DNA of 64,000 nucleotides from the NCBI GenBank assembly GCA_903873905.1, contig CAIQQJ010000131.1, positions 22,729-86,728 on the forward strand, read 5' to 3'. Both the position numbers and the translations under genes were made by a program. The notes under the pieces were generated by a model that made no database searches, was not told the origin of the DNA, and was given only the letters and a program-made list of their open reading frames with translations. This stretch comes from an uncultured Flavobacteriales bacterium. GTDB taxonomy: Bacteria > Bacteroidota > Bacteroidia > Palsa-965. This document shows, in pieces, positions 1-17,600 of this stretch (position 1 is the first letter of the stretch; the number at the start of each line of letters is the position of its first letter).

Positions 1-185
1 CTACGGTAACAGAATTTGCAGTTGTATCCGTATTGGTAATATAGGTGTCACCAAGGCGTGGAAGATCAGCAGAAGTAATTGTGATTTGCGCTTCCAATGC
101 GGAAGCAAAAAAAACGGCGCAGAAAAGAAAAAATATATTTCTCATTATTTTTTTACTTAAATCACAATTTAAATCTTCTATTCTA

Positions 186-1025
186 TCAAACAGCAACAGC
201 TTTTTTCTCTTGGAGTTTCAAATGTCTAAAACCACCCCATAAAGCAGCTCCAATTGCTCCAGAATAAATTGCATCAGGATGAGTTTTTATTACAAAAGTT
301 TTTCCTGTTTCATCAAGTTGTTCTTGGATTGCCTGCATCATTCCTTTGTTCAAAGCCATTCCACCTGTAAGAATAATTGGTGACTCTGCTTTCAATGAAC
401 TTAGAAGTTTGATAATCCTTCCAGCAATTGACAAGTGAATTCCTTTGATAATATTTGGAGTAGAAATTCCACGCGATACCATGTTGATTACATCCGTTTC
501 AGCAAGTACAGCACAAATTCCAGAAGATATTTCTGGTTCGGCAGCTTGCAAAGAAACTTCACCAACTTCCTCAATAGATAAACCAAGATATCTGGAAATA
601 TTTTCAACAAATTGTCCAGAACCAGATGCACATTGTCCTGTCATTTTATAATCCTGAACACGCGCACCTTCTGCAATTTTGATGGCACGCACATAAAGTG
701 CTCCCATATCTACAACACTTTTTGCATCTGGGAAAAAGTAATTTGCGCCTTTTGCATGCGTGGTCATTCCATAAAAATGTCCGCGTTTGCGTCTTACAAG
801 ATCGCCTTCACCAGTAGAGGCAAGATACGCTACGTCCTCATACTTCAAATTATGTTTAGCAAGCATAGCCACAATCAAATCATCGGCAAGCGTTGTCGGA
901 TTTCTTTTGCGGATTTTTTCCGTTTGCTTATCAATAATTTTTGGATTTGATGAATAGTCAACAAGGACTAACTTGATGAAATTACTTCCAACATCAATTC
1001 CCATTGTAAAAAAAGAATTTTCCAT
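186..1025 (-). CDS. BadF/BadG/BcrA/BcrD-family ASKHA ATPase (small ATP-binding/activator subunit, BcrD/HgdC-like)
   Basis: 279-aa ORF. N-terminal GIDVGS phosphate-1 motif. Paired cluster-bridging Cys motifs (QCASGSGQF and ICAVLAETD) equivalent to HgdC Cys127/Cys166. Size matches BcrD (about 280 aa). Confidence 0.8.
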   Translation of the reverse strand: MENSFFTMGIDVGSNFIKLVLVDYSSNPKIIDKQTEKIRKRNPTTLADDLIVAMLAKHNLKYEDVAYLASTGEGDLVRRKRGHFYGMTTHAKGANYFFPDAKSVVDMGALYVRAIKIAEGARVQDYKMTGQCASGSGQFVENISRYLGLSIEEVGEVSLQAAEPEISSGICAVLAETDVINMVSRGISTPNIIKGIHLSIAGRIIKLLSSLKAESPIILTGGMALNKGMMQAIQEQLDETGKTFVIKTHPDAIYSGAIGAALWGGFRHLKLQEKKAVAV

Positions 1026-1029
1026 AGTT

Positions 1030-2175
1030 TTATTTATTTGTCAGCTCAGGTTTATTTATTGATACAATTTCCTTTTTATAAATTACATTTTTTTTCGCCA
1101 GATAATTCACAACAAACTCAAAACACTTCTCCTCCTCACCAATGAATTCAGGAGGACAAATACCTTTCCTCCAAAACATTCCATCCAAAACCAAATGGGC
1201 GGCGGCAGTGCATGTATAACCAGTGGTGCGCGCCATTGAAGAGGTTTGCGTTTCATCATCAAAACTATCATACAGTGTGTAGGTGATTTTCTGTTCGTTG
1301 TCTTCTACTACAACTCGCATGATGGTAAAATCCTTTTCACCGGGTTTCATTTTCCACTTCGGAAAAAGCAATTTGCTGGTAAGTTCGAGTGGAGTAACAT
1401 TCTGTCCATTTATGACAATTGGTTCTTTACTGAAAAGTCCAGTTTCGCGAAAAATTTTCATCAATTCCACATGACCTGGAAAACGCAAAGTTTTTTCCTT
1501 CATGTTTTTCACATCAGGCATGGTGTGTGCCAATGATCGCAGTCCGTCTGAATTGAAAGACTCCAATTCTCCAGTTTCTGGGAATGAAATTTTCACACAA
1601 TCAGATAAAGCTTCTTTGGTAACTAGTTTTCCATCTTCCACATATCGTGCAGGACGAACATATTCCTCAATGACATCTGCAGGAGAAAAAACCGCTTTGT
1701 ATTCGAAAGGCCATTCACGAACAACAGGAAGTCCTCCTACGAGACATTCGTAACCTGTCAATTTCATTTGTTTGTTATGATATCCTGCAATGATATTACA
1801 CATTCCAGGTGCCACACCACAATCAACAACAACAGTTACATTATTTTTTATCGCAAGTTCATTGAGTAAAAAAGGATCTTCAGGAAAAAAAGAAATGTCG
1901 ACGACATTTTTTCCACATGAAATAATATTTTTCAAAACTTCGAATCCCATAAATCCAGGCACTGCACCAATTACCAAATCAAAGGGTGCAACAAGTTTTT
2001 CCAATTCAACTTTATCAAGAAAATTAATTGGAACAACCTTGATTGGAAATCGTGAAGACAGTTCAGAAAGTGAACTCAAATTCATATCCGCACAAGTAAC
2101 TTCAAACGCTTTGCTTAAATCAATTGCAATAGTTTTTCCAATCAAGCCCGCACCCAAGACAAGCACCTTTTTCAT
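1030..2175 (-). CDS. saccharopine dehydrogenase-family NAD(P)-dependent oxidoreductase
   Basis: 381-aa ORF. N-terminal Rossmann motif VLVLGAGLIGK. Overall saccharopine/carboxynorspermidine-dehydrogenase-like length and layout. A 4-nt gap to the downstream BcrD-like gene implies an operon. Confidence 0.6.
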   Translation of the reverse strand: MKKVLVLGAGLIGKTIAIDLSKAFEVTCADMNLSSLSELSSRFPIKVVPINFLDKVELEKLVAPFDLVIGAVPGFMGFEVLKNIISCGKNVVDISFFPEDPFLLNELAIKNNVTVVVDCGVAPGMCNIIAGYHNKQMKLTGYECLVGGLPVVREWPFEYKAVFSPADVIEEYVRPARYVEDGKLVTKEALSDCVKISFPETGELESFNSDGLRSLAHTMPDVKNMKEKTLRFPGHVELMKIFRETGLFSKEPIVINGQNVTPLELTSKLLFPKWKMKPGEKDFTIMRVVVEDNEQKITYTLYDSFDDETQTSSMARTTGYTCTAAAHLVLDGMFWRKGICPPEFIGEEEKCFEFVVNYLAKKNVIYKKEIVSINKPELTNK

Positions 2176-2358
2176 CTTTTGTCATGTTTTTTCCTGTACC
2201 AAAGTAACACTCAAAGACACTCTCTTCTTATGATCACCGTCATATTTCACATTGAAAAATTTAGAATTCCAGATTAATTTTTAATCGATAAAAAATCCAG
2301 CTTTTCATGGGAGATTTTTTGGAAAAATTCATAAAATAGGCTGATTTTTCGATTGGAA

Positions 2359-3105
2359 TTATTGCTTTTCAACCAAGGGGCCATTTATTGCCAATCTGAC
2401 TTCTTCTTCAAGTTGAGTATGGTCTTCCTTTTTCAAGCCAATTGTCATGATTGGTTTGTGAATAATCACTTCGCTGAAGCCAGGACCCGCTTTTCCTTTG
2501 AACATTCCACCAATTCCAAGACGTTTCCAATTACTCACAAACGTAATGGGAAGAATCGGGATTTGTTTTTGAATGGCAATTGCAAATGCGCCAGGCTTGA
2601 ATGGTCCAAGATTCGGTGGATCTTTTGGTCGGGTGCCTTCTGCAAATATCATGAGTGGAATTCCATTATCAATTTCCTGCGACATTCTTTTGATTGCTTT
2701 GAAAGAACCCGCTGTGCTACTTCTATCGACCATGATATTCATTCCAGATGTATAAAAAATATGGAAGAGTGGCCATTTTTCAATTTCCTTTTTTCCCACA
2801 AAAACAAAATATCTGTTGAACAATCGGTAGAGGCAAAATGCATCCATGAAAGAAGTGTGGTTCGGGCAAATGATAAATGATCCTGTTGCGGGAATATTTT
2901 CTTTTCCTTTTACTTTCATGATTATTCCAGCAAAAGCCACCAACAAAAATGCATGGAATTTCATCACGCTAAAGGCTGTCGGAAAACGTTTTGGATTTCG
3001 GAATAAATAAAAGTAGAGCGGAAACATTACCAGCATTACGATTGAAAAAAACAGCAGGTAATAAATTTTGAATATTATCCGAAATGGCGCAAGTAAATAA
3101 TCCAT
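2359..3105 (-). CDS. lysophospholipid (1-acyl-sn-glycerol-3-phosphate) acyltransferase, PlsC family
   Basis: 248-aa ORF. N-terminal TM segment. HX4D block PNHTSFMDAF and FAEGTR block are the diagnostic PlsC motifs. Confidence 0.8.
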   Translation of the reverse strand: MDYLLAPFRIIFKIYYLLFFSIVMLVMFPLYFYLFRNPKRFPTAFSVMKFHAFLLVAFAGIIMKVKGKENIPATGSFIICPNHTSFMDAFCLYRLFNRYFVFVGKKEIEKWPLFHIFYTSGMNIMVDRSSTAGSFKAIKRMSQEIDNGIPLMIFAEGTRPKDPPNLGPFKPGAFAIAIQKQIPILPITFVSNWKRLGIGGMFKGKAGPGFSEVIIHKPIMTIGLKKEDHTQLEEEVRLAINGPLVEKQ

Positions 3106-3160
3106 GACAATCAGGTTCCCTCAATTTTTGACAGCAAAAAAAATGGCAAATAAATAATTA

Positions 3161-4024
3161 TTAAAAAACACTTTTACCATTTTTCATTCCATAAACATGC
3201 TCTTTCACTTTTTGTGCCCACTGCTGGTCGGTATTTTCCTTCGTGAATTTCTCGTATGAAATTGGTGATCCAACAGTTATTTTTATTGCTTTACCTTTTT
3301 GTTTGTACGTTTCATTCACGAGGTAAAACATTTCAATGTTTGCTTTAATCCCCATTGTTTTCCTGAATCGCGCCAGGTTATAAAAAAAGCCACTGTTCTG
3401 CGCATCGATATATACTGGAATTACATCGTGTTTATATTTTATTGCTTTGGTCACAAAACTTTTCTTCCATTCAAGATCTTCGATTTTTCCATTTTGCTTT
3501 CTTGAAACCAAACCTGCTGGAAAAACAATTGTGCAACCTTCAGAAGCATACGATTGGTCTATTTGCGCAATACTCACAGCTGCATTCTTTCCATGCTTGT
3601 TCACAGGAATCATCAGGCTCGCCATGTTTTCAAGATTCATCAAAATGTCATTGACGATTGCCTTCTGATCTGTTCTCCTCTTCCCTACTTCACACATCAG
3701 TGCAATTCCATCGATACCACCAAGAGGATGATTTGCAACAATGATCAGTCCACCTTCTTTCGGAATATTTTCTAAGCCTTCGCTGATCAACACTACTCCA
3801 AAATCTAGAATAGCTGCATCAATGAATTTGTGGTCCATTACATCCTTTGTACGTAACAGAAAATCATTGAATTCATCTTGATGAACAATGCGCTTCATGT
3901 ATGACAATAGGAAACGCGGTAGCCATTTCAGAAGACGCGGATTTTTTCCTCTGATTACTTTTTCAAGATCAATTTGTATTACTTCCCTCGATTTGCTCAC
4001 TTGAAGAATATCATTTTTTTGCAA
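3161..4024 (-). CDS. acyltransferase, divergent PlsC-like lysophospholipid acyltransferase family
   Basis: 287-aa ORF. VANHPLGGIDG block resembles the HX4-5D acyltransferase motif. Later FPAG block. Sits directly upstream of, and co-oriented with, the PlsC gene, like olsB-olsA / glsB-glsA aminolipid pairs. Confidence 0.55.
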   Translation of the reverse strand: MQKNDILQVSKSREVIQIDLEKVIRGKNPRLLKWLPRFLLSYMKRIVHQDEFNDFLLRTKDVMDHKFIDAAILDFGVVLISEGLENIPKEGGLIIVANHPLGGIDGIALMCEVGKRRTDQKAIVNDILMNLENMASLMIPVNKHGKNAAVSIAQIDQSYASEGCTIVFPAGLVSRKQNGKIEDLEWKKSFVTKAIKYKHDVIPVYIDAQNSGFFYNLARFRKTMGIKANIEMFYLVNETYKQKGKAIKITVGSPISYEKFTKENTDQQWAQKVKEHVYGMKNGKSVF

Positions 4025-4098
4025 AAATATTATATCTCCAATAGTAATTGAAGTCTATTGAAAAAACTATGAGGAAATGGAGTGCCTGGATTTTAAGT

Positions 4099-5517
4099 TC
4101 AGGCTACTTCCTTATTCTTCTTCGCCGAAGGTAGATCAACTTTGATATTTCTTCTGGCAAACATTGCTCCACCTAAAGCGCCCATGAAAATGGAATCGGT
4201 ATGGATATTGATTTTTATTCCGTCTCCATAATTTTCCTTCACAAGTTGTCCGAGGTATTTGATAACTGCTGGATTACGAGCAACACCACCTGTGAAAGTA
4301 AATTCGTTGAACACACCACCTGAACGAGCGATTAATGACATAGCCCGCATGATGATCGCTTTGTGCAAACCACCTAAAATATCTTCTCTCTTTTCTCCAA
4401 GGTTTGTCAATTCGCGCAATTCGGCACCAGCAAAAACTGTACAAGTAGAACAGATTGTAACCTCTTTTTCTGCTTGCATCGCCATTGGTCCAAGTTCATT
4501 GAGTGAAATACTCATTTCATCAGCGATGTAACCAAGATATCTTCCGCAACCGGCAGCACAACGATCATTCATTTGGAAACTGGTAACAAGACCATATTTA
4601 TCCACTTGAATTGCTTTGGTGTCTTGTCCGCCAATGTCAAGAACAGTTCTTGTATCAGGGAAAACAGCGTGTGCACCGAAAGCGTGACACAGAATTTCGG
4701 AACGAATGCAATCTTCAGGGAAAGGAAGAAGAGCGCGACCATATCCTGTTCCAGTCATGTTGGTAATATTGAAATCCATCATTGCAACATCATCAATGTG
4801 TTGACGAAGTGAATCTGAAATATTTTCAACTTTTCCTTTCAATAAATTTATTTCTGCATCAAAGTTTACGCTAACATTTTCTGCTGCGGTCTCTGTAAGC
4901 GTATTGTATTTTTCTTTCAAACGATCCATTGATTTATGAATCAATTCAATGAAATCAAAATCAACAGAAATGTTTTCAGCAGGGGTGATACTTTTATCCC
5001 ACACGGTCATCAACGACTCGAATAATTCAGGCCCCAATTTCGCAACTTCTTCATTGTATTTTTCAGAAACAATATCGCGGAAGAATTGATTTTTGCTTCC
5101 AAGATTACCAAACAGATATTCATTCTTAATCCTTGGCTTCATTGATTTACGAATGGCGCGCAAAGCTTCCAAAATAGTATCCTGCATTTCAGGTTTGATA
5201 TAACTCTTGGTAGTTTTTAAAAGCTCCTCACCAAGTTTGTCAATACGAATTCTGAATTGCTCGTATTGAAAAGCATTTTCCAAATCAGAAATATATTTTC
5301 TGTATTCAGGATTAGCTTCCATTTCCTTTTCAAGATTCCTCTTTAGAATGGAAAAGCGTGCATTGTAAACGGCTTCAGCACGAGCAATATCAGCAGCGAC
5401 AGCGTAATTCGCTCTGGTATTTGTAATTCCACGGCCGATGATTTCATCATTCTCATTGATGATTACCGCCTTCGAAGTTGTTGATCCAAGGTCAACACCT
5501 AAATAATATTTATGCAT
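4099..5517 (-). CDS. BadF/BadG/BcrA/BcrD-family ASKHA ATPase (large ATP-binding subunit, BcrA/BadF-like)
   Basis: 472-aa ORF. LGVDLGSTTSK phosphate-1 motif, DIGGQDTK phosphate-2 motif. Cluster-bridging Cys motifs RCAAGCGRYLG and CSTCTVFAGAE. Long inserted helical domain as in BcrA. Confidence 0.8.
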   Translation of the reverse strand: MHKYYLGVDLGSTTSKAVIINENDEIIGRGITNTRANYAVAADIARAEAVYNARFSILKRNLEKEMEANPEYRKYISDLENAFQYEQFRIRIDKLGEELLKTTKSYIKPEMQDTILEALRAIRKSMKPRIKNEYLFGNLGSKNQFFRDIVSEKYNEEVAKLGPELFESLMTVWDKSITPAENISVDFDFIELIHKSMDRLKEKYNTLTETAAENVSVNFDAEINLLKGKVENISDSLRQHIDDVAMMDFNITNMTGTGYGRALLPFPEDCIRSEILCHAFGAHAVFPDTRTVLDIGGQDTKAIQVDKYGLVTSFQMNDRCAAGCGRYLGYIADEMSISLNELGPMAMQAEKEVTICSTCTVFAGAELRELTNLGEKREDILGGLHKAIIMRAMSLIARSGGVFNEFTFTGGVARNPAVIKYLGQLVKENYGDGIKINIHTDSIFMGALGGAMFARRNIKVDLPSAKKNKEVA

Positions 5518-5536
5518 GTTGTTTACTTTTCAAATA

Positions 5537-6841
5537 TTAAACTGTAGCACCTTCTTCTTGTGACATGATGATTTTTCTTTGTTCCAACATTTGGAAATAA
5601 GACTCCAAACGATTCTTGATATTCGCATAGGAGAAATAACGCGGATCAACAAGATCAGATTCTACGAATCCAACTGGCACACCTGAACGCTGTTCAATTT
5701 CTCGCATGATCATCAATTGACCTGCCGAGAATGAATTGCAACTCTTGATTGAATTGATCAAAAAACCATCTGCTTTATATTCTTTTACATAATCAGCCAA
5801 AAGATTTACACGTTGTGGAAGATTCAAATTCGTGTAACAGCCCATGCAATATTTTGCAAGACTCTCCAATGGTTGTTTTGGATCGTGACGGAATCCCATA
5901 TCATAAACTCCACCCACTTTTGTGTAAGATGATGCCACAATTACGGCGCCCATGTCATAAAATATTTTCCAGAATTCGCGGAAGTTGGTCCAGTTTGGAG
6001 GTCCTTCAACTACCAAACGGAATTTTTCTTCTTTGATTTCCCCTTCTGGCGTTACAGGGCCAAGACCGAGTCGCATTCTTTCCTGTACCTCTTTCCAAAG
6101 CTCTTCATAATAATCAACCGCTTCTTGTGTACCACGGAATGCGGTGAAAATTGGTCCGATATAATATACACCAGCGAAATAAGCATCGATTGGTGAAGGA
6201 ACATGTTTCGCACTTTCAAGAATTTTCACAAGAAGATCTTCAGCCTTCGCTGAATTTTCCATCATTTTGGAAAGACGAACCTGGTCATATTTTTTACCAG
6301 ATACCATTTCCATTTTCGGAATAACATCCTCGTTCATTTGCTTCACCATGTATTCTATTTGATCCGTTGTAATTTGTCCATCTTCCTGATAAGGAGTATG
6401 AAGCATTGCAACAGGAACACCTGGATACAACCGTTCAAGATTTTCAAACCATTTCAAGAATGTAAAACATCCTGTGTAACTCAACAGCAACAAATCTGGA
6501 GCTGGAAGTTTTTCACCTGTAGGTCCGACGTTGCCATTCAACATCATTCCGATATCACACTTTACATAAGTGCAAACATCTTCAGAGAATCCAATTTTTT
6601 CAGCATCCTTGATATAGGCCGCTGATTTTTTTCTCATACCTGATTGTAGTGCATTGATTTCTGGATATACGGGAAGCATATCGAATGAAAGAATCAATTC
6701 GGTAAGATTACCTGGTACAAAAGTATAAACCACTTTTTTTCCAAGTTCTTTCGCTTTACCTAAATCTTGAAATTGTTTTGCAAGCATGTCCTTCTGAAGG
6801 ACCATACTTTTTTCTTTTATTGCATCTTGCGGATTAGCCAT
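5537..6841 (-). CDS. benzoyl-CoA reductase / 2-hydroxyacyl-CoA dehydratase family subunit (BcrB/HgdA-B-like)
   Basis: 434-aa ORF with the overall profile of the HgdA/HgdB/BcrB/BcrC superfamily (conserved Cys-containing segments). A 20-nt gap to flanking genes implies an operon. Confidence 0.7.
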   Translation of the reverse strand: MANPQDAIKEKSMVLQKDMLAKQFQDLGKAKELGKKVVYTFVPGNLTELILSFDMLPVYPEINALQSGMRKKSAAYIKDAEKIGFSEDVCTYVKCDIGMMLNGNVGPTGEKLPAPDLLLLSYTGCFTFLKWFENLERLYPGVPVAMLHTPYQEDGQITTDQIEYMVKQMNEDVIPKMEMVSGKKYDQVRLSKMMENSAKAEDLLVKILESAKHVPSPIDAYFAGVYYIGPIFTAFRGTQEAVDYYEELWKEVQERMRLGLGPVTPEGEIKEEKFRLVVEGPPNWTNFREFWKIFYDMGAVIVASSYTKVGGVYDMGFRHDPKQPLESLAKYCMGCYTNLNLPQRVNLLADYVKEYKADGFLINSIKSCNSFSAGQLMIMREIEQRSGVPVGFVESDLVDPRYFSYANIKNRLESYFQMLEQRKIIMSQEEGATV

Positions 6842-6861
6842 TGTAAACTATTTTTTTTGGT

Positions 6862-8025
6862 TTAGGCCCAGAGTTTAATTGAATCAGAAAAAGTTCCGGC
6901 TTGTTCCTTGATGACTTTGAATTGTCCGGTATTTTCGTGGAATTGAAAATTGATGTGAGCAAGTCCTGCTGCATCACATTCTTTTTGCATTTCTGGACGA
7001 TCCAACAATGCTGGATCACAGAAACTAGCTGCGCAGAAAATCACTCCGTCGGCATTACACGCTTCTGCAAGTTTCACCAAACGTTTTCCTTTTGGATTGC
7101 CTACATCATAATAAGCCGATGAAAAAGTACTTTGATTAATGTAAGCCAAAGCCAATGTTTCAAGAGGATTAGCAGTTGTATCGTCAATATCGCCTTGAAT
7201 CCAACGTGAGCCAAGCATCAAGTCATCTTCAACGATATAGCAACCTGCCATTTCAATTGATTTTATCATTCCAATTGGCGGTTGTTCACAGAAAGAACCA
7301 GAAATCACAACACGGATATTATCCATCGGTTCTCCACGCTCTATACTGATTACATCAATAACTTGTTGTAGAATTTTATTGTGCTGCTCTACAGGAATTG
7401 CAAGTCCTGCACGAAGAACATAATACGTATCAACTGCAGATAATCTCCAAGGGAATTCCTGTCTGATTTTATAAATCGCTTCGATCAAACGACGGTTAAT
7501 ATTATAAAGTCCGATTGCTTTATTAATTGCATCAACCGTTACTTTCACACCATTGACTTTGAACATATCGTCAATGATTTTTTCCATTTCCTGTTTGTAA
7601 AAAGTTCCGCCAATTTTTGGATCAAAATTTTGCGGATAATCGAAATAGCGTTGGAAGTTCCCTTTTTTAGAAAGTTTGAACATGCCAGAAAGATTTCTAA
7701 CACAATCGCAAATTGCAGGGAAAAGAAAACCATCAAAATCATTCAGGTTTTTATCCAAAGCCATTTCTATGATGCCACGTGGGAGATGGCATATGTAGGA
7801 TTGATAATAGGCATCACCCTTAATGATTTGTTTTCGATCACCGGCTCCCATAATTCCAACCGGTAATGCCTTGGCGGCGTGCATAATTTCCCGTGGTACA
7901 TAGATTGGCAAATAACCAACAATCATACGATCAGGAGAATCAGCTTTCCATTTTTTTGCTACTTCAAAGTTCAGGTCAAAAGCAAGTGCTTCACATTCTT
8001 TCAGCAGCTGATCAAGCTTATCCAT
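6862..8025 (-). CDS. benzoyl-CoA reductase / 2-hydroxyacyl-CoA dehydratase family subunit (BcrC/BadD-like)
   Basis: 387-aa ORF, HgdB/BcrC-like. It is the first gene of the minus-strand operon; the length matches BcrC (about 386 aa). Confidence 0.7.
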   Translation of the reverse strand: MDKLDQLLKECEALAFDLNFEVAKKWKADSPDRMIVGYLPIYVPREIMHAAKALPVGIMGAGDRKQIIKGDAYYQSYICHLPRGIIEMALDKNLNDFDGFLFPAICDCVRNLSGMFKLSKKGNFQRYFDYPQNFDPKIGGTFYKQEMEKIIDDMFKVNGVKVTVDAINKAIGLYNINRRLIEAIYKIRQEFPWRLSAVDTYYVLRAGLAIPVEQHNKILQQVIDVISIERGEPMDNIRVVISGSFCEQPPIGMIKSIEMAGCYIVEDDLMLGSRWIQGDIDDTTANPLETLALAYINQSTFSSAYYDVGNPKGKRLVKLAEACNADGVIFCAASFCDPALLDRPEMQKECDAAGLAHINFQFHENTGQFKVIKEQAGTFSDSIKLWA

Positions 8026-8187
8026 TTTTCAGAGATATTAATTCCTTTTTATCCTTTTATGGTATCTTAAAATACCAAATTCCACTTTTTTGTGTAACAA
8101 AGTAATCTCCAAATGTCATGATCCACTATGACCTACATCATATTTTAATCATTTCGCTGAAATTAGGTTTACCACAGAAAAATTCAA

Positions 8188-8793
8188 ATGAAACAAGCTA
8201 CTAGTGCTGTGGTTCTTGCGGGTGGAAAATCGGAAAGAATGGGATGCCCAAAACCCTATTTGGACTTTCAGGGCAAGACCTTTATCGAAAAAATCATTGA
8301 AACCTATAAATTGGCGGATGTTGAAAATATTACTGTCGTTTTCAACAAAAACTACATACTTCCAATTTGGAAAAAGCTGTTGAACCATCTAAAATCTGAA
8401 GCAAGGATAATTGTCAACGATAATTCAACTGCTGGCAGATTTCATTCGCTCAAACTCGGATTGGACAACATCACTGAAACAGATTATTGTTTCATACAAA
8501 ATGTCGATAATCCGTTTGTCAGTCCGAGTTTAATAAATACCTTATATGAAAATAAAATCCCAGATGCCTACACTGTTCCTGTTCATGAAAATCATGGTGG
8601 GCATCCGATTCTTATTTCCAAATCAATCATCGATCATATTCGTAAAATTGAAAAATCAGAACTTACATTAAGGGAAATCCTTTCAAATTTCAAACGCAAT
8701 GAAGTGGTTGTAAACGATCCGTCTATTTTGTTCAATATTAATACACCAGAAGATTACAAAAAGTATTCTCTTAACAGCGGATTTTTTCTTTGA
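8188..8793 (+). CDS. molybdenum cofactor nucleotidyltransferase (MobA/MocA family; probably a cytidylyltransferase, given the XdhC and MOP-type enzyme nearby)
   Basis: 201-aa ORF. N-terminal LAGGKSERMG NTP-transferase motif typical of MobA/MocA. Confidence 0.7.
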   Translation: MKQATSAVVLAGGKSERMGCPKPYLDFQGKTFIEKIIETYKLADVENITVVFNKNYILPIWKKLLNHLKSEARIIVNDNSTAGRFHSLKLGLDNITETDYCFIQNVDNPFVSPSLINTLYENKIPDAYTVPVHENHGGHPILISKSIIDHIRKIEKSELTLREILSNFKRNEVVVNDPSILFNINTPEDYKKYSLNSGFFL

Positions 8794-8797
8794 AGCC

Positions 8798-9571
8798 ATG
8801 GAAAATATTTATGACGTGTTGTTGGAAATTCAAAAAGGCAGACGAAAGGCTGCTGTGTGCACCATAGTTCAAACAAAAGGATCTGCTCCCGCAAAAACTG
8901 GAAGCAAAATGATTGTTTATGAGGACAGCAAAATCTGGGGGACAATTGGTGGCGGAAGTCTTGAAAAAAAAGTAATTGAAAATGCAATTGCCGTGATGAC
9001 AAGTGGAAAACCAAATCTGTTTCGTCATGATTTATTGCATCAACATAACATGTGCTGTGGTGGCACCGTTGATATTTTTATTGAGCCAATTATGAAAAAA
9101 AACAAACTCTACATTTTTGGCGCGGGTCATACGGGAGTTGCGCTTGCTAAATTTGCACAACATTTCGGTTTTGAAATTGTCATTATTGATGATCGAAAAG
9201 AATATCTGGATGAAATAAAAATTCCAGAAGTAAATAAAATGAATCTTTCGCACCAAGAAGCCTTACGTGTTTTGCCTTTCGATGAACAGACTTATATCTG
9301 TATCATGACTTACAGTCATCCAATTGACAGGGAAATTTTGGCCTATTGTGTCAACAAGCCCTTCGCTTACCTTGGAATGATCGGAAGCGAACGGAAAGTT
9401 GAAATGACAAAAAAAATGTTCAGTGAAGGACTGAATATTTCCGAAGAAAAACTTTTTGCAATTGATATGCCAATGGGAATTGATATTCTTGCAGAAACTC
9501 CAGATGAAATTGCCATTAGCATTCTTTCAAAATTAATTTCAGTCAAAAATAAAGTCACACATGAAAAATAA
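8798..9571 (+). CDS. xdhC: XdhC/CoxI-family molybdenum cofactor insertion chaperone
   Basis: 257-aa ORF. XdhC_CoxI N-domain and a C-terminal Rossmann-like domain (IFGAGHTGVALAKFA). A 5-nt gap from the mocA-like gene. Confidence 0.75.
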   Translation: MENIYDVLLEIQKGRRKAAVCTIVQTKGSAPAKTGSKMIVYEDSKIWGTIGGGSLEKKVIENAIAVMTSGKPNLFRHDLLHQHNMCCGGTVDIFIEPIMKKNKLYIFGAGHTGVALAKFAQHFGFEIVIIDDRKEYLDEIKIPEVNKMNLSHQEALRVLPFDEQTYICIMTYSHPIDREILAYCVNKPFAYLGMIGSERKVEMTKKMFSEGLNISEEKLFAIDMPMGIDILAETPDEIAISILSKLISVKNKVTHEK

Positions 9572-10298
9572 AATCGCATTAGTAACAGGAGCATCAAAGG
9601 GAATTGGAAAAGCCATTGTAGAAAGATTGGTGAATGAAAATTATTTTGTGCTCGCCATTGATATTGACAAGGAAAATGGAGAACGTCTGCAAAATGAAAT
9701 GGGCAATGATAAAATCCGTTTTATTTCAGTTGACATTTGCGACGAAAATAAAACAACCGAATTATTCAAAACCATTTCTTCAGAATATGGACAGCTTGAT
9801 GTTCTTGTCAATAATGCAGGAATCATAAAAGACAACATGATCTGGAAAATGCCTGTGGAAGATTTTGATGCTGTGATCAATGTAAATCTCAAAGGAACTT
9901 GGTTGATGTGCAGAGAAGCTGCGAAAATGATGAAAAATCAGAATAGCGGAAGAATTGTAAACATTGCATCACGCGCGTGGTTGGGCAATCGCGGGCAAAG
10001 TAATTATTCCGCATCCAAAGCTGGCGTAATTGGTCTTACACGTGTGCTTGCGCTTGAATTGGGGAAATATAATGTTTGCGTAAACGCAGTCGCACCAGGA
10101 TTAATTGACACGCCACTTTCGCAAAAATTGGAAAAGGATGTTTTACAAAAACTGATTGACGCACAACCAACAAGAACAATGGGAAAACCTGAGGATGTTG
10201 CCAACGCAGTCGCATTTCTCGCATCAGAAAAAACCCAATTCATTACCGGCCAAACCATTTATGTTGATGGCGGTAAAAGTATAGGTGCGGGGAATTAA
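9561..10298 (+). CDS. short-chain dehydrogenase/reductase, 3-oxoacyl-ACP reductase (FabG)-like
   Basis: 245-aa ORF. TGASKGIGKAI cofactor motif, NNAG, YSASKAG catalytic motif. Overlaps the xdhC stop by 11 nt. Confidence 0.85.
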   Translation: MKNKIALVTGASKGIGKAIVERLVNENYFVLAIDIDKENGERLQNEMGNDKIRFISVDICDENKTTELFKTISSEYGQLDVLVNNAGIIKDNMIWKMPVEDFDAVINVNLKGTWLMCREAAKMMKNQNSGRIVNIASRAWLGNRGQSNYSASKAGVIGLTRVLALELGKYNVCVNAVAPGLIDTPLSQKLEKDVLQKLIDAQPTRTMGKPEDVANAVAFLASEKTQFITGQTIYVDGGKSIGAGN

Positions 10299-12142
10299 TC
10301 TATTACAATTGGAATAGGAACCTGAATATTGCGGATCATATCCTCCAGTCGTTCCAAATCTTTTCCAAATGAGCCAAGTGCATTTTCAGAAAACAATTTC
10401 ATTTCTGGAATAATATTTTTGTAATACTCTACGCCTTTCAAGAGATTCTCCTTGAACGAATCGAAATACCTCGTTTGTTTCGCTGAAATATTTTCGATGT
10501 GCATATTGATTTCTGCCAGAAAATAATCCACATAAAGAACAAGCTCATTCACAAATAAATTTGGCCTGTTCAATTGGTTTAGAATATTCACTTTTCCATA
10601 AATATGATCCACCATTTCCTTCAGTGAAAAAACACCCGAGAAATATGCCAGATTTGGACCAGGACAAATGCTCACAGCAGTTAGGCTATGGGAGAGTGGA
10701 AGATTGTCTTTTATCAATGTAGAAGCGCCAAGACCTTCGCACAAACATTCCTTCTCTGTAATGAAGTTAAATTGTTTTTCAAATTCCTCTTCAGAAAGTT
10801 TTTGCTCTTTTAGCTGATTGATTTTTTTTGCTTGATATTCTCTTGATGCGGTGCAAATAGGATCAGTGGTGAATTCCGTATTGAACCCAAGAAACTTCTT
10901 GTAACACGGGCTTCCTGGTCTTCCTGCATCTATTCTTGCATTGCGTTGAAGAATGGAAGTGCTTCCTGCAAAATTATTGATTGGAATTCCAAGTGGCGAC
11001 GCATGACTAAGAAAATAATCCTCTTTTTTTGCTTTCACCAATTGATCGAGCGTTCCTTCATCCACATTCGTAGCTTCAGGCACGAGCAAAAATGGACTTC
11101 CCCAACCGCAACCATCTAATTCAAAATATTCGCGTAGGAAACAATCTTCAATTGCCGTTCCAATTCCACCTTGCACCGTGATTTTTGTTTTCAACGGCGA
11201 GCCAAAATTATTTTTGGATTTTTGTTTCAATGCTTCATTACACATCATCCACAATTCCTTCTCCAATTCACTTTTTCTGGATTTGAATTCATCCAAAATC
11301 GGACCAAGCAAAAGTCCTTCTGTGGCAAATGCATGCCCACCACAATTCAATCCTGATTCAATTCTATATTCTGAAATCCACAATCCTTTTTTCGCAAGAA
11401 TTTTCCCTTGAATAAAAGCAGATCTGAAATCACTTACTTTAAGAATTATTTTCTTCTTCAAGTTTCCATTTGCATCAGGCAAAAAATCATCAAATGATTC
11501 GCAATAGGCATAAAGCCTAGGATTCATTCCCGCTGAGAAAACAACAGAAGACGACAAGGTGCTTTGCGCAAATCCACGCAAGGCTGCCATTGCATCCGCA
11601 TATTCAGGTGGAAGAACTTCACCATCATCATCATAATTATTGCGGTCGCATTTTGTCATGATATTAACATCAATATCACCGGCTTTAATCTCTTTCCGCA
11701 ATTGCTGTTGCATAGCAGTTTTCTCGACCCCTTCAGTCAACAACATTTTCTCGTACAACATTTTTACACGAGAACTGCTTGGCAACATTTCAAAATATTT
11801 AACAATGTCTGTTCCTGCTTCAAATTTTTCCAATCTGAGCGCCTCAATTTGTCTCGATAAGATCCTGTCCAATAAATTCAGGTAAGAAGTAATTCGTTTA
11901 GCACGGTGATCAACATCGCTGGTTTCAATTGGGATAAAAGCATCTACTTCTTTTTCATAATAATACTTCCGCACCTTCTCCACCAAATGATCTTCAATGA
12001 TCGAAACAACAGATGAAATTCCATATTTCCCGACTTTAACCGGCGTGTCAATGGTATATCCCAAACCCATCACTGGAATATGGAACGTATGTAGTCCTGA
12101 ATTTGACATTATAGTTTCTTTTTTAGGGGAATGAAACAGCAC
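10295..12142 (-). CDS. hypothetical protein, possibly a large TIM-barrel flavin-type oxidoreductase (family not resolved)
   Basis: 615-aa uninterrupted ORF. Motifs GLNCGGHAF and QGGIGTAIED are reminiscent of FMN TIM-barrel enzymes (NPD/enoyl-reductase/glutamate-synthase-like), but no confident family match. An alternative start at MSNSGL (12109) is possible. Confidence 0.5.
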   Translation of the reverse strand: MLFHSPKKETIMSNSGLHTFHIPVMGLGYTIDTPVKVGKYGISSVVSIIEDHLVEKVRKYYYEKEVDAFIPIETSDVDHRAKRITSYLNLLDRILSRQIEALRLEKFEAGTDIVKYFEMLPSSSRVKMLYEKMLLTEGVEKTAMQQQLRKEIKAGDIDVNIMTKCDRNNYDDDGEVLPPEYADAMAALRGFAQSTLSSSVVFSAGMNPRLYAYCESFDDFLPDANGNLKKKIILKVSDFRSAFIQGKILAKKGLWISEYRIESGLNCGGHAFATEGLLLGPILDEFKSRKSELEKELWMMCNEALKQKSKNNFGSPLKTKITVQGGIGTAIEDCFLREYFELDGCGWGSPFLLVPEATNVDEGTLDQLVKAKKEDYFLSHASPLGIPINNFAGSTSILQRNARIDAGRPGSPCYKKFLGFNTEFTTDPICTASREYQAKKINQLKEQKLSEEEFEKQFNFITEKECLCEGLGASTLIKDNLPLSHSLTAVSICPGPNLAYFSGVFSLKEMVDHIYGKVNILNQLNRPNLFVNELVLYVDYFLAEINMHIENISAKQTRYFDSFKENLLKGVEYYKNIIPEMKLFSENALGSFGKDLERLEDMIRNIQVPIPIVID

Positions 12143-12294
12143 AAAATACCATCCACTCCAATGTCAGCTAAGGTCGTTATATATGTTAGCGAGAGATATG
12201 ATATAAATCATGTTTGCTGCTCCTAAATATTGTGAAATTTGAGAAAAAGATACCTCTAAAATTTGAATTTTTGAAGCGGTTCGAAAAAAAATAA

Positions 12295-13539
12295 GTGAAA
12301 GAAAAAACCAAAGTAGAATTACTTGCCCCATGTGGATCATTTGAATCGCTTTCAGCAGCTGTGAAAGTCGGGGCGAATGCTGTTTATTTTGGAATTGAAC
12401 AGTTGAATATGCGCACCCGTTCATCGAACAATTTTGAGATGAAAGATCTTGCAGCGATCAGTAAAATTTGCAAAGAACATCAGGTAAAATCATATCTCAC
12501 ACTCAACACCATTCTCTACAATCACGACATCAATCTGATGAAAAGAATTGTGGATGAAGCAAAGGCAAATAATATTGATGCGATCATCGCTTCAGATCAT
12601 GCGGTTTTCAACTATGCGAAGAAAGTTGGAATTCCATTGCACATTTCCACTCAGGCAAACATTACGAATATCGATACGGTTGAATTTTATTCTACGTATG
12701 CAGATGTAATGGTCATGTCGCGTGAACTGACACTTGATCAGGTTTCGGAAATCACAGAAGAAATAAAAAAGAGAAATGTTCGCGGGCCTTCTGGAGAATT
12801 GGTTCGTGTTGAAATTTTTGCACATGGAGCTTTGTGCATGGCCGTTTCCGGAAAATGCTACATGAGTTTGCATTCCGATTTTGCTTCTGCCAATCGTGGT
12901 GCTTGTGTTCAAAATTGCAGAAGAAGTTATATCGTTACCGACAAAGAATCGGGAACTGAATTTGAAATTCAGAACGAATATATCATGTCAGCGAAAGATC
13001 TTTGTACGATCAGTTTCATTGACAAAATTGTCAATGCAGGAGTTTCTGTTTTGAAAATTGAAGGACGAGCACGTGGTGAAGAATATGTTCACACCGTTAC
13101 CAAATGTTATCACGAAGCAATTGATTCGCTTTCTGATGGAACTTATTCTCCAGCAAAAATTGAAGGTTGGACAAAAGAACTTTCCACTGTATTTAATCGC
13201 GGATTCTGGGATGGTTATTACCTCGGAAGAAAAATGGGAGAATGGAATGATGAATATGGTTCCAAGGCAACAAAAAAGAAAATCTATATTGGAAAAGGCA
13301 TAAAATATTTTGAGAAAATTGGAATTGGTGAATTCAAAATTGAAAGTCAATCCTTGGAAGTTGGCGATGAAATAATGATTTCAGGACCTACAACAGGAAT
13401 CATTCAGACAGCCATAACAGAAATGAGAATCAATGATGTGAAAAGTGAAATTGCAAAACGTGGTGAAACCATTTCCATTCCTATCAACGTTAAAATTCGT
13501 GCTTCCGATAAATTATACAAGATGAAAAGTACAGTATGA
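12295..13539 (+). CDS. peptidase U32-family protein (PrtC/RlhA/TrhP/UbiU-like; probably an Fe-S, O2-independent hydroxylase-type enzyme)
   Basis: 414-aa ORF. U32 N-terminal TIM-barrel region (ELLAPCGSFESLSAAVKVGANAVYFG) and conserved Cys (CMAVSGKCYMS...CVQNCRRSY). Confidence 0.8.
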   Translation: MKEKTKVELLAPCGSFESLSAAVKVGANAVYFGIEQLNMRTRSSNNFEMKDLAAISKICKEHQVKSYLTLNTILYNHDINLMKRIVDEAKANNIDAIIASDHAVFNYAKKVGIPLHISTQANITNIDTVEFYSTYADVMVMSRELTLDQVSEITEEIKKRNVRGPSGELVRVEIFAHGALCMAVSGKCYMSLHSDFASANRGACVQNCRRSYIVTDKESGTEFEIQNEYIMSAKDLCTISFIDKIVNAGVSVLKIEGRARGEEYVHTVTKCYHEAIDSLSDGTYSPAKIEGWTKELSTVFNRGFWDGYYLGRKMGEWNDEYGSKATKKKIYIGKGIKYFEKIGIGEFKIESQSLEVGDEIMISGPTTGIIQTAITEMRINDVKSEIAKRGETISIPINVKIRASDKLYKMKSTV

Positions 13540-13766
13540 TTCGGATTTTTCATCAGCGCAAAAAATGCATTGGTTGTAATGCATGTGTGGAAGTAAATAA
13601 ATCAAGATGGAGAATATCACGTTTGGATGGGAAATCAACTTTGATTGAAGGAATAGAAAAAAAAGGAATTTACATGGCAACTGTTTTTGATGATGAATGG
13701 GAAGCCAATGAACTCGCAGCGAAAAATTGTCCAGTAAAAATCATCCGATTGGAAAAAATAGTATGA
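13536..13766 (+). CDS. small ferredoxin (single-cluster Fe-S protein)
   Basis: 76-aa ORF. CIGCNACVE ... NCP motif (CxxCxxC...CP). Start overlaps the U32 stop (ATGA). Stop overlaps the likely start of the downstream Mo enzyme. Confidence 0.6.
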   Translation: MIRIFHQRKKCIGCNACVEVNKSRWRISRLDGKSTLIEGIEKKGIYMATVFDDEWEANELAAKNCPVKIIRLEKIV

Positions 13767-16561
13767 AACAAATCAACATTAAAATCAACGGAAAAAATTT
13801 CGACCTTCTCGTTGAGGAACACGAAATGCTTTCAAATGTCATTCGTGAAAAGGTTGGCCTTACAGGTACAAAAGTCGGTTGTGAGCAAGGAAGTTGTGGA
13901 GCTTGTACTGTTCTCGTTAACAAGGAACCTGTGCTCAGTTGCATCACTCCTGCTTTGCGTTATGATGGTGCTGAAATTACAACTATCGAAGGCGTTTCCA
14001 AAAATGGAGAACTGCATCGCTTGCAGGAAAAATTTGTGGAGAAAGGTGCGATTCAGTGTGGATTTTGTACTCCAGGAATGATCATCACTTCATTGGATTT
14101 TTTAAGCAAGAATCCGAATCCTACAAAACATGAAATAAAGGAAGCGTTATCAGGAAATGTTTGTCGTTGCACTGGATATAAAAAGATTGTGGAAGCGGTT
14201 GCTGAATACGCCGAAGAAAAGAATTCAGGCAAAATCATCAAAAGAAAAAAAGAAAAAGAAACAGGAACTGTTGGAGTTGGCCGACCATACATTGAGGCAA
14301 CAAAAAAAGTTCAGGGAATTGCTGATTATGCAGACGACTATCAATTCAAAGATGTTTTGCATGTAAAATTTGTAAAAAGTATTTATCCACATGCTCGCAT
14401 TGTAAGTATTGACACTTCTGAAGCTTTGGCAATGGAAGGCGTTCGATATATTGCCACAGGAAAAGAATTGCCAATCACTTTTGGAGTATTGCCTCTTTCA
14501 CAAGATGAAACGGCAATGGCCATTGAAAAAACAAGATATGCTGGAGAAATTGTTGCGGCTGTTGCAGCAGATTCAGAAGAAATTGCAGCACATGCATGCA
14601 AACACATCAAGGTTGTTTACGAACCGCTTAAAGCATTCCTTACCATTGACGATTCCTTGAATGACATTGGTACAGCAGAAAAAATTCACGACACAACAAA
14701 ATTCAATAACAACATTCACAAGAAAGCGGAATTACGCTTTGGTGATCAGCAACAAGGATTGAAAGAAGCTGAAGTTGCATTAAAAATGGATTTTGAAATG
14801 ATTGGCATCAATCATGGTTTTACAGAGCCGCACGCGTCCACAGCATTTTGGGATGAGAATGGTTTGACCATGATTTCTGCAACACAAGTAACACACTACC
14901 TCCATCGCGCACTTGCAAAAACAATGGAAGTTCCATTGAGCAGAGTACGCGTAATCAAACCTGTTCTCGGTGGTGGTTTCGGTGGAAAAAGCGATCCTTT
15001 CGCGCATGAAATTATTGTCGCGCACATTGCAAGAAAAACTGGAAAACCAGTGAAAGTTCGATTGACGCGGGAAGAAGTATTCTTGAACAACCATGGTCGT
15101 CACCCAACAAAAATGACTATCCAATTAGGCGCAAGTAAAGATGGATTTTTGAAAGTGCTTGATGCCGATGTTGCAATTGATGGTGGTGCATACGGAAGTT
15201 TTGGAGTGGTTACATCCTATTACAATGGCGTATTGCTTCAAGCTCCCTACAAGCTGAATAATTTCGGTTTTAAAACCTATCGTGTTTATACCAACAAACC
15301 ACAATGTGGTGCCATGCGCGGACATGGTGCAGTGAATACAAGATTTGCAGTTGAATCGATGATCGATGAAATTGCACATCAAATAAAAATTGATCCTGTC
15401 GAGATGCGAATGAAAAATTTTCTCGATCCGAATTCATTGACAGTTGGTCATTACCGCATCACTTCGAATGGAAGCAGAGAAGCAATTCAAAGAGTGGCAG
15501 AACAATCCGATTGGAAAAACAAACATGGTAAAATGCCGCAAGGTCATGGCTATGGAGTTGCTTGCGGATTTTTCATTAGTGGAAGTGCATTGCCGATCGT
15601 ATGGAATGAATTGCCGCAATCAGTAGTGCATTTGAAAGTTGATTTTGATGGAAGAGTTTTAATTGCTTCTGGCGCGAATGATATTGGACAAGGCAGCGAT
15701 ACCATGCTTGCCATTATTGTTGCAGAGGTACTTGGAATTAGCATGGACAAAACATTTGTAATCGCTGCAGATACATTGATCACACCTGTTGATTTGGGAA
15801 GCTATTCCAGTCGCGTAACATTTATGGCTGGTAATGCAGCAAAAGATGCAGCTGAAAATCTCAAAAAAGAAATTGCAAACTCCATTTCTGTAAAGAAAAA
15901 TATTCCTGTAGAAGAATTGATTTTTTCTGAGAATAGAATTTTCAGCAATGATAAATCGGTCGATCTAAGTTGGGATCAAGCCATTGAAATTTTGACAGCA
16001 AATCGTGGTGCAGTGAATGTGAGTGGAAAATATATTTCTCCAAAATTGGGTGGTGATTTCAAAGGAGCTGGAGCAGGATTAAGTCCATCTTATTCTTTCA
16101 GTTCTTGTGTCGCAGAAGTGAAAGTGGATACAGAAACAGGACATGTGAAAATCATCAATGTTTGGGGTGCTCACGATTGTGGAAAAGCACTAAATCCATT
16201 GGCAGTTGAAGGACAATTGGAAGGCTCTTGGCACATGGGAATCGGGCAAGTGATGACGGAAGAAATGTCATATTACAATGGATTATTGATCAACAATAAT
16301 TTCTTGGATTATAAAATTCCGACAAGTTTGGATACTCCTCCCATTCACACCAACATCATCGAGACGATTGATCCGGAAGGTCCTTTTGGTGCGAAAGAAA
16401 CAGGAGAAGGTGCCATTCATGCAGTATTGCCAGCCATCGCAAATGCAGTCTATGATGCAGTTGGAATTCGAATCACAAAACTTCCAATCAAATCAGAGGA
16501 TGTTTTGAGATTATTGAAAGAAAAAGAAAAAATAAATTCCACTTCAAAAGCTAGTTTATAA
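13763..16561 (+). CDS. xanthine dehydrogenase-family molybdoenzyme with fused N-terminal 2x[2Fe-2S] domain (aldehyde oxidoreductase MOP-like; probably a molybdopterin cytosine dinucleotide (MCD) enzyme)
   Basis: About 930-aa ORF. The ORF track start is 13727; the likely start is MKQINIKINGKNF at 13763. 2Fe-2S motifs CEQGSCGACTV, QCGFCTPGM, CRCTGY. Long aldehyde-oxidase/XDH a/b hammerhead and Mo-binding domains (GGGFGGK, etc.). Architecture as in D. gigas MOP. Confidence 0.85.
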   Translation: MKQINIKINGKNFDLLVEEHEMLSNVIREKVGLTGTKVGCEQGSCGACTVLVNKEPVLSCITPALRYDGAEITTIEGVSKNGELHRLQEKFVEKGAIQCGFCTPGMIITSLDFLSKNPNPTKHEIKEALSGNVCRCTGYKKIVEAVAEYAEEKNSGKIIKRKKEKETGTVGVGRPYIEATKKVQGIADYADDYQFKDVLHVKFVKSIYPHARIVSIDTSEALAMEGVRYIATGKELPITFGVLPLSQDETAMAIEKTRYAGEIVAAVAADSEEIAAHACKHIKVVYEPLKAFLTIDDSLNDIGTAEKIHDTTKFNNNIHKKAELRFGDQQQGLKEAEVALKMDFEMIGINHGFTEPHASTAFWDENGLTMISATQVTHYLHRALAKTMEVPLSRVRVIKPVLGGGFGGKSDPFAHEIIVAHIARKTGKPVKVRLTREEVFLNNHGRHPTKMTIQLGASKDGFLKVLDADVAIDGGAYGSFGVVTSYYNGVLLQAPYKLNNFGFKTYRVYTNKPQCGAMRGHGAVNTRFAVESMIDEIAHQIKIDPVEMRMKNFLDPNSLTVGHYRITSNGSREAIQRVAEQSDWKNKHGKMPQGHGYGVACGFFISGSALPIVWNELPQSVVHLKVDFDGRVLIASGANDIGQGSDTMLAIIVAEVLGISMDKTFVIAADTLITPVDLGSYSSRVTFMAGNAAKDAAENLKKEIANSISVKKNIPVEELIFSENRIFSNDKSVDLSWDQAIEILTANRGAVNVSGKYISPKLGGDFKGAGAGLSPSYSFSSCVAEVKVDTETGHVKIINVWGAHDCGKALNPLAVEGQLEGSWHMGIGQVMTEEMSYYNGLLINNNFLDYKIPTSLDTPPIHTNIIETIDPEGPFGAKETGEGAIHAVLPAIANAVYDAVGIRITKLPIKSEDVLRLLKEKEKINSTSKASL

Positions 16562-17496
16562 TGGTTTCCGAAAAAATTTATGTAAAACCAAAATCTGTTG
16601 AGCAAGCTATAAAAATAGCGAGTCAATACCTTGGTTCATTTCGATACCTCGCAGGTGGAACCGATGTGATCGTGAATAAATATCAGGGAAATGAAGAAGC
16701 GAATTGTTTGATCGATATCACGGAGATCGAAGAATTGAAAAAAGTTTCCATCGATGGTGATTATTTGAAAATTGGATCATTGATAAAATTAGACGATCTG
16801 AAAAAACACGAATCCATTGTCAAATACATTCCCACATTAATTCAAGCGGCTCACGAAGTGGCTTCACCCATATTACGCAAAACGGCTACTATCGGTGGAA
16901 ATATTTTGTGTGAAAACAGATGTTCCTTTTACAATCAAAGTGAATGGTGGAGAGAAGCTGTAGGATATTGTTTGAAATGTGATGGGGAAATCTGCATTGC
17001 AACTGGCGGTAAGAAAAATTGTTTTTCAAAATTTGTTTCCGACACAGCACCTGTGCTCATCGCTTTGAATGCAAGGCTCGAAATTATCGATACCAATGGG
17101 GAATCTACCATTGCGCTTGAAGATATTTATTCAGGCGACGGGATGAATCCAAGAAAGCTAAGTGCAACAGCGTTGATCCGAAATATTCAGATTCCCATTG
17201 GTGAAAAACAGATTTGCATTTTCAAAAAACTCCGTCCACGTGAAGCGGTTGATTTTACATCGCTCACGACAGCTGTTTCACAAAGTGAAATTGGAAGAGT
17301 AAGAATTGTTCTCGGCGGAGTGGATCCTAAACCAATTGTTGTAGAGGGAAAAACAACAGATGATAAAAATGCATTGATCACTTCTGCTGTAAAAAAAGCT
17401 AGAATTGTCGACAATGATGTTTATTCACGTCAATACAGAAAAGAAATGATTTCGGTTTACCTACAAAGAAGTTTCGATGAATTGAAATGGGAATAG
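16561..17496 (+). CDS. FAD-binding subunit of a xanthine dehydrogenase-family enzyme (CoxM/HcrB-like) with a Cys-rich insertion
   Basis: 311-aa ORF. YLAGGTDV and TIGGN FAD-domain motifs. Start overlaps the Mo-subunit stop (ATGG/TAATGG). Six-Cys insert at residues 117-154. Confidence 0.8.
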   Translation: MVSEKIYVKPKSVEQAIKIASQYLGSFRYLAGGTDVIVNKYQGNEEANCLIDITEIEELKKVSIDGDYLKIGSLIKLDDLKKHESIVKYIPTLIQAAHEVASPILRKTATIGGNILCENRCSFYNQSEWWREAVGYCLKCDGEICIATGGKKNCFSKFVSDTAPVLIALNARLEIIDTNGESTIALEDIYSGDGMNPRKLSATALIRNIQIPIGEKQICIFKKLRPREAVDFTSLTTAVSQSEIGRVRIVLGGVDPKPIVVEGKTTDDKNALITSAVKKARIVDNDVYSRQYRKEMISVYLQRSFDELKWE

Positions 17497-17600
17497 TGGT
17501 ATTCCAAATCATAAGACAAGATTGCCTTTGACACAGGTTGCTATTTAACACAACTATATAAATTAATAATAACCATTATATTTTTCTCACACCAATTATC

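Follow-up and report, generated by a model that had tools for sequence, protein, structure and literature searches.

In the window (the whole 64-kb stretch of DNA that was analyzed), two adjacent acyltransferase genes are probably membrane-lipid O-acylation genes lodged between bcrA and bcrD, in a variable slot of a BCR-like reductase cluster, taking part neither in the reductase chemistry nor in a self-sufficient aminolipid synthase; we set the probability of this reading at about 0.6. The reading draws on the family assignments of the two proteins, invariant motifs, purifying selection, the distribution of gene orders, and the occurrence of orthologues away from the reductase. The placement of the pair within the reductase cluster is unusual yet real, and it is confined to one uncultured Bacteroidota lineage. 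The enzymes themselves are most likely ordinary lipid O-acyltransferases.

The window opens with seven minus-strand genes that run in the same direction, all within its first 8 kb. A bcrC-like gene (6862-8025, minus strand; NCBIfam TIGR02263, 449 bits against a cut-off of 421), a bcrB-like gene (5537-6841, minus strand; TIGR02260, 686 bits against 487), and a bcrA-like gene (4099-5517, minus strand; TIGR02259, 447 bits, below the cut-off of 578) are followed by the acyltransferase pair. The first gene of the pair (3161-4024, minus strand, TTG start) encodes a GlsA-type (PF19576, Acyltransf_2) lyso-aminolipid O-acyltransferase of 287 aa, and the second (2359-3105, minus strand, ATG start) encodes a PlsC-type (PF01553) acyltransferase of 248 aa. 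Downstream of the pair lie a saccharopine-dehydrogenase-like gene (1030-2175, minus strand; Pfam Sacchrp_dh_C and Sacchrp_dh_NADP) and a bcrD-like ATPase gene (186-1025, minus strand; Pfam BcrAD_BadFG; TIGR02261, 316.8 bits against 312.85). From bcrC to bcrD, successive genes are separated by 20, 19, 74, 55, 183, and 4 nt. The first-pass annotation had described two co-directional acyltransferase genes, with the motifs given below, inside a BCR-like cluster, and this arrangement is confirmed. BcrB, BcrC, and BcrD of the window exceed the cut-offs of the Thauera-type NCBIfam equivalogs, and BcrA falls under its own. A flexirubin/aryl-polyene or plasmalogen-synthase (PlsA/PlsR-like) context was dropped because BcrB, BcrC, and BcrD pass these Thauera-type cut-offs, and it is also disfavored by the absence of polyketide-type genes nearby. 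The divergent neighbor of the reductase operon is a MobA-XdhC-Mo-hydroxylase-FAD-hemerythrin module; elsewhere, the window carries type IX secretion tails and SprB repeats, along with Crp/Fnr regulators and respiratory genes. A literature search found no paper on this Bacteroidota reductase cluster or on any acyltransferase link to it.

Gene calls of the same lengths as the acyltransferase pair occur on 17 public contigs, and other public contigs encode exact copies of both proteins next to the same neighbors. Homologues number in the thousands for the 287-aa protein (AT2) and in the hundreds for the 248-aa PlsC. Together with low dN/dS against L007, the nearest relative of the window locus, the public gene calls and the many homologues indicate that both ORFs are real genes and not chance ORFs. 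Between the window and L007, dN/dS is 0.096 for the GlsA-type gene and 0.110 for the PlsC-type gene, values near 0.1 that point to purifying selection on two functional genes. The corresponding values are 0.075 for the saccharopine-dehydrogenase-like gene, 0.057 for bcrD, and 0.016 for bcrA, while dS is 0.7-1.5 for all five genes and about 1.4 for the acyltransferase genes. Identity to L007 drops from 98% in BcrA to 79% in the acyltransferases. A separate history for the bcr genes, which this drop might suggest, was rejected because dS is high for all genes; with dS at 0.7-1.5 throughout, the difference in identity reflects constraint and not recent transfer. These comparisons indicate that the five genes share one history and that the reductase is under much stronger constraint.

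Profile comparisons identify the 287-aa protein as a GlsA-type O-acyltransferase, not an N-acyltransferase. The protein carries the motifs VANHPLGGIDG and IVFPAGLVSRK and matches Pfam PF19576 over its full length (217 bits, residues 23-283), with 42.6 bits on PF01553. On the NCBIfam GlsA equivalog NF053697 it scores 357.7 bits, above the cut-off of 260; the GlsB-paired homologue L109 and a third homologue, L094, score 367.7 and 362.3 bits on the GlsA model. The motifs NHPLGGxDG, FPAGLVSR, and NKH are invariant across 13 PlsC-paired and 54 GlsB-paired sequences. No membrane helix is predicted in the 287-aa protein. GlsA (ChoB, BT_3458) of Bacteroides, which O-acylates lyso-glycine lipid in the glsA-glsB glycine lipid/flavolipin pathway, shares with it the PF19576 family and the NHPLGGxDG and FPAG motifs, and in both cases the gene is the first of a two-gene acyltransferase locus. 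The window locus differs in that a PlsC-type gene (PF01553), not glsB, comes second, and in that it lies within a BCR-like cluster in a 64-kb window without glsB. The 287-aa protein is also homologous to the N-terminal O-acyltransferase domain of OlsF, which in Flavobacterium and Serratia is a bifunctional ornithine lipid synthase, but lacks the C-terminal N-acyltransferase domain. Against the OlsF profile (NF052615) it scores 205.8 bits, where the cut-off is 620, and the alignment covers positions 2-270 only, which correspond to the O-acyltransferase half.

The first-pass annotation had instead taken the 287-aa protein for an OlsB/GlsB-like N-acyltransferase preceding an O-acyltransferase. 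The GlsB, OlsB, and Acetyltransf_5 models match neither the 287-aa nor the 248-aa protein at E <= 0.01, and with the OlsF alignment confined to positions 2-270, the profile comparison came out against an N-acyltransferase. The genuine GlsB proteins of related loci reach about 500 bits on NF053696, and their OlsF alignment spans positions 277-569. The supposed gene order is likewise reversed, since glsA lies upstream of glsB in Bacteroidales and in 54 metagenome loci. A tblastn search with three genuine GlsB proteins (E <= 1e-3) gave no match in the 64-kb window, in the reductase loci examined, or anywhere among loci L001-L095; of the 76 metagenome loci at a greater distance (L096-L171), 66 gave a GlsB homologue. 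No Acetyltransf_5 domain turned up when the remaining large ORFs of the window were scanned with Pfam. The PF01553 group includes OlsA, PlsC, and SalA, the PF19576 group includes GlsA and the OlsF N-terminus, and both groups carry out the second, O-acylating step (PMC11631085). With both genes in O-acyltransferase families and no GlsB found, the locus lacks the initial N-acylation. The proposed link to aminolipids holds insofar as the 287-aa protein belongs to the GlsA aminolipid family, and fails insofar as that protein is not an N-acyltransferase and the locus has no N-acylation step. We therefore give next to no credence to de novo aminolipid synthesis by an N- plus O-acyltransferase pair such as OlsB-OlsA or GlsB-GlsA: the GlsA-type gene does come from the glycine-lipid pathway family, but neither protein matches GlsB, OlsB, or Acetyltransf_5, the 287-aa protein covers only the O-acyltransferase half of OlsF, and the GlsB search is empty for the window and the reductase loci alike.

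The 248-aa protein is a membrane-anchored PlsC-type enzyme and probably a 1-acyl-sn-glycerol-3-phosphate acyltransferase. It carries the motifs CPNHTSFMDAF (HX4D) and MIFAEGTRPKD (EGTR), scores 92.9 bits on PF01553, and passes TIGR00530 marginally (108.6 bits against a cut-off of 102.95). Its score on the E. coli PlsC equivalog, 52 bits, is far under the cut-off of 501. The N-terminus is strongly hydrophobic, with a Kyte-Doolittle maximum of 2.39 in a 19-residue window from residue 10. The protein resembles the Thermotoga PlsC structure 5KYM along its full length (residues 17-231, E 5e-19), and Thermotoga maritima PlsC shares the PF01553 domain, the HX4D and EGTR motifs, and the N-terminal anchor. 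The OlsB-OlsA systems for ornithine lipids in Sinorhizobium and Pseudomonas are also two-gene acyltransferase loci with a PF01553 O-acyltransferase, but the window pair has no OlsB-type gene, and its PF01553 protein falls far below the OlsA cut-off (49.4 and 42.5 bits on the equivalogs NF052552 and NF052553, cut-off 300).

Both enzymes are predicted to add a second acyl chain to lipid intermediates. By family, the GlsA-type enzyme would form an ester on the 3-hydroxyl group of lyso-glycine lipid, an N-(3-hydroxyacyl) amino acid, and the PlsC-type enzyme would convert lysophosphatidate to phosphatidate. Neither predicted step would be coupled biochemically to the reductase.

The pairing of glsA with a plsC-type gene is a trait of the lineage. 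In Bacteroidales, glsB lies directly downstream of glsA (bioRxiv 10.1101/371807; PMC12971839). A metagenome scan with the 287-aa protein as query returned 80 loci. Among GlsA homologues at 48-56% identity, a gene of about 310 aa comes next in 54 loci, and three representatives of this downstream gene are confirmed as GlsB (about 500 bits, NF053696). Among homologues of at least 57% identity, a PlsC-type gene comes next in 21 of 23 loci (before de-duplication). In a neighbor-joining tree, the GlsA proteins paired with PlsC make up a single clade that arises within those paired with GlsB. At least 23 of the best matches to the two window proteins are on contigs of matching length, which suggests that the glsA-plsC pair is common in the clade of the window. 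The pair is lineage-specific, with a plsC-type gene in the usual place of glsB just downstream of glsA.

The acyltransferase genes are not a core part of the Bacteroidota BCR-like operon. A BcrA scan of species-representative genomes returned 80 loci, all from Bacteroidota-type MAGs with 75-84% BcrA identity. The bcrD gene is adjacent to bcrA in 50 of these loci, the saccharopine-dehydrogenase-like gene alone precedes bcrD in 10, and a GlsA-type and/or PlsC-type gene follows bcrA in 9; in the remaining loci, bcrA is followed by other genes of the same neighborhood or by unrelated ones. Elsewhere the slot holds, among others, a 615-aa protein that Pfam does not match, hemerythrin with a 143-aa ORF, or a molybdenum hydroxylase. 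Only the window and L007 combine the acyltransferase pair with the dehydrogenase. In five other examined acyltransferase-bearing loci that retain bcrD on the contig (L018, L021, L028, L039, and L085), bcrD is 3-9.6 kb away, past LuxR-type regulators on the opposite strand, TonB-type receptors, and further unrelated genes; this displacement marks the bcrA-bcrD junction as a rearrangement hot spot. At L047, by contrast, the PlsC-type gene starts 3 nt after bcrA and fits tightly before bcrD, with bcrA and bcrD 917 nt apart.

The position next to bcrA is more persistent than the rest of the layout. The adjacency of bcrA and an acyltransferase gene is kept across a clade with 59-67% GlsA identity, while genes further downstream are scrambled. 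Of eight clade loci found without a reductase query, four adjoin bcrA and one adjoins the MobA-XdhC-Mo-hydroxylase-FAD-hemerythrin module. A concatenated BcrCBA tree puts the acyltransferase loci at three or more separate positions, represented by the L085 group, the window, and L047, which hints at a repeated association of acyltransferases with the reductase. One ancestral placement with later losses would fit equally well, as the neighbor-joining trees are poorly resolved for proteins that are about 80% identical.

The spacers around the pair are consistent with transcription from the reductase operon. The 74-nt spacer between bcrA and the 287-aa gene (4025-4098, minus strand) contains a sigma-70-like TAGACT-17-TATAAT match and a stretch similar to the L007 spacer, but no Bacteroidota-type TAnnTTTG box. 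The sigma-70-like match is not above shuffle expectation (29 matches in the consensus scan against 24.9 expected) and is no evidence of an internal promoter upstream of the 287-aa gene. Across 16 loci, the bcrA-AT2 and AT2-PlsC spacers have no TAnnTTTG box near a start codon; only four scattered matches occur, about 90-125 nt upstream. The two acyltransferase genes are separated by a 55-nt spacer (3106-3160, minus strand), and the minus-strand spacers of the window, including 4025-4098 and 3106-3160, hold no terminator-like hairpins. Spacers between bcrA and the acyltransferase gene in related loci are 0-216 nt long. Short spacers without terminator-like hairpins fit read-through, and we infer that the pair is probably co-transcribed with bcrCBA from the bcr promoter. 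In the 183-nt spacer between the PlsC-type gene and the dehydrogenase gene (2176-2358, minus strand), the approximately 80 nt nearest the start of the dehydrogenase gene are about 90% identical to L007 despite synonymous divergence near 1, which suggests a separate regulatory element for the dehydrogenase gene and bcrD. The fold of this spacer is not more stable than that of shuffled sequences (z = 0.15), and window positions 1-9000 have no Rfam match.

Orthologues of the pair also occur away from reductase genes. The whole pair is present without a nearby reductase in L008/L009 and L010/L011, following an NsrR-NirK-NirV-SenC cluster in L008 and standing in a neutral context in L010. The GlsA-type gene occurs alone in L094, and PlsC orthologues lie in a neutral context in L173 and between nadAB and mdh (nadA-nadB-plsC-mdh) in L175. 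Members of the pair are also found beside anaerobic modules: a GlsA-type orthologue directly upstream of a MobA-XdhC-Mo-hydroxylase-FAD-hemerythrin module in L176, and a PlsC orthologue within a narGHI/narK/hemerythrin/molybdenum-cofactor cluster in L172. That the same orthologues are found without a reductase nearby counts against the idea that the acyltransferases transfer alicyclic or aromatic acyl groups from the CoA thioesters of the reductase pathway onto a lipid or small-molecule acceptor. The sole support for this highly improbable reading is the embedding of the pair in a cluster that metabolizes CoA thioesters; downstream of bcrD, related loci also have an acyl-CoA synthetase of the NDP-forming type and another HGD-D/activase set. 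The pair is absent from most reductase operons, its motifs are all unchanged, and its family scores are ordinary: the window GlsA reaches 357.7 bits, and two homologues reach 362-368 bits.

The plain lipid-acylation reading meets its main counterargument in the persistence of the bcrA adjacency, the several tree positions, and the anaerobic-module neighbors of the orthologues, and the pair may have a specialized paralogue role. A tentative and somewhat unlikely alternative is that the genes are co-regulated in an anoxia-induced regulon, encoding isozymes that remodel the acyl chains of membrane aminolipids and phospholipids while the oxygen-sensitive reductase and anaerobic respiratory modules are active, and that selection has kept their placement. 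The conservation of the bcrA adjacency over a divergent clade despite downstream scrambling would agree with this, as would the three positions in the BcrCBA tree, including the 3-nt bcrA-PlsC gap of L047. Orthologues do reside in nar (L172), nirK (L008), and Mo-hydroxylase/hemerythrin (L176) modules; the other genes of the bcrA-bcrD slot (the 615-aa protein, hemerythrin, and the Mo-hydroxylase) usually come from the same neighborhood; and the window has Crp/Fnr regulators and respiratory genes of its own. On the other side, 71 of the 80 reductase-bearing species have no acyltransferase gene after bcrA, several orthologues stand in neutral or housekeeping contexts (L010, L094, L173, and L175), and a single ancestral placement followed by losses explains the data equally well. 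A stronger version, in which the pair lost its glsB neighbor and became a selected member of an anoxia-induced aryl-CoA-reductase regulon, seems to us distinctly doubtful. Were it true, cells would switch the acylation of membrane aminolipids and phospholipids along with their oxygen-sensitive aromatic metabolism, or this acylation might even draw on acyl-CoA donors from the pathway.

On the preferred reading as lipid O-acylation genes, the annotation of the locus as an aminolipid synthase cassette is corrected, and under NCBI-style naming the two products would be GlsA and a PlsC-family acyltransferase. The pair represents a clade-specific variant of the canonical Bacteroidota glsA-glsB locus, which bears on the prediction of glycine-lipid capacity from genomes. 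The bcrA-bcrD junction, within an otherwise very conserved Bacteroidota reductase operon, appears as a slot that gathers other genes. Should the ties to anaerobic modules prove regulatory, membrane-lipid acylation and anoxic metabolism would be connected in environmental Bacteroidota.

The benzoyl-CoA-reductase-like (BCR-like) operon is a member of a highly conserved family that occurs in no fewer than 80 Bacteroidota-type species (loci L012-L091), with BcrA identity of 75-84%. Between the window and its nearest relative, L007, bcrA has a dN/dS of 0.016. A literature search for this BCR-like Bacteroidota gene cluster found no descriptive paper.

The saccharopine-dehydrogenase-like gene (1030-2175, minus strand) appears to be an accessory to the reductase and not to the lipid genes, since bcrA and bcrD tightly flank it in 10 other species, all of which lack the acyltransferases. 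Its product matches no NCBIfam equivalog. Ahead of its start codon, a stretch of about 80 nt (window ~2176-2255, minus strand; L007 ~3760-3840) retains ~90% identity between the two loci despite near-saturated synonymous sites, and is probably a promoter or operator serving the dehydrogenase-bcrD pair. Several reductase loci also keep a 615-aa ORF (10295-12142, minus strand, in the window) at 49-66% identity, placed in L037 between bcrA and bcrD; this ORF has no Pfam match.

Orthologues of both acyltransferases repeatedly adjoin anaerobic modules. The PlsC orthologue lies within a narGHI/narK/hemerythrin/Moco-biosynthesis cluster (L172, 7001-7774), the pair follows NsrR-NirK-NirV-SenC (L008, 10001-11598), and the GlsA-type gene sits immediately upstream of MobA-XdhC-Mo-hydroxylase-hemerythrin (L176, 8001-8840). 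In some related loci, short spacers flanking the acyltransferase genes, 3' of bcrA and of the GlsA-type gene, are made up of small repeat units such as aaagttt/aaacttt runs and gagatatgag-like repeats (L039, ~11423-11540, and spacers in L049 and L060), which fits repeat-rich, recombination-prone junctions.

When the operon and its neighbourhood (186-8025, minus strand, and 8188-19968) are compared with loci L012-L091, the recurrent neighbours are MobA, XdhC, an SDR, a U32 peptidase-like protein, hemerythrin, Beta_elim_lyase, and a fused 2Fe-2S/molybdenum hydroxylase with an FAD subunit. Other loci carry, 3' of bcrD, an NDP-forming acyl-CoA synthetase, a second HGD-D protein and an ApbA-BcrAD fusion. 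The window's region at 20039-43664 is densely packed with genes for respiration and redox stress, which encode cytochromes c, a 4Fe-4S/NrfD pair, two heme-copper-oxidase-family proteins, DUF2249/ScdA/hemerythrin proteins, and three Crp/Fnr-type regulators. Its content suggests a denitrification or NO-stress island adjoining the reductase cluster. The BCR-like operon with its recurrent neighbours looks like an anaerobic aryl-CoA route of the 4-hydroxybenzoyl-CoA-reductase-like plus ring-reductase kind.
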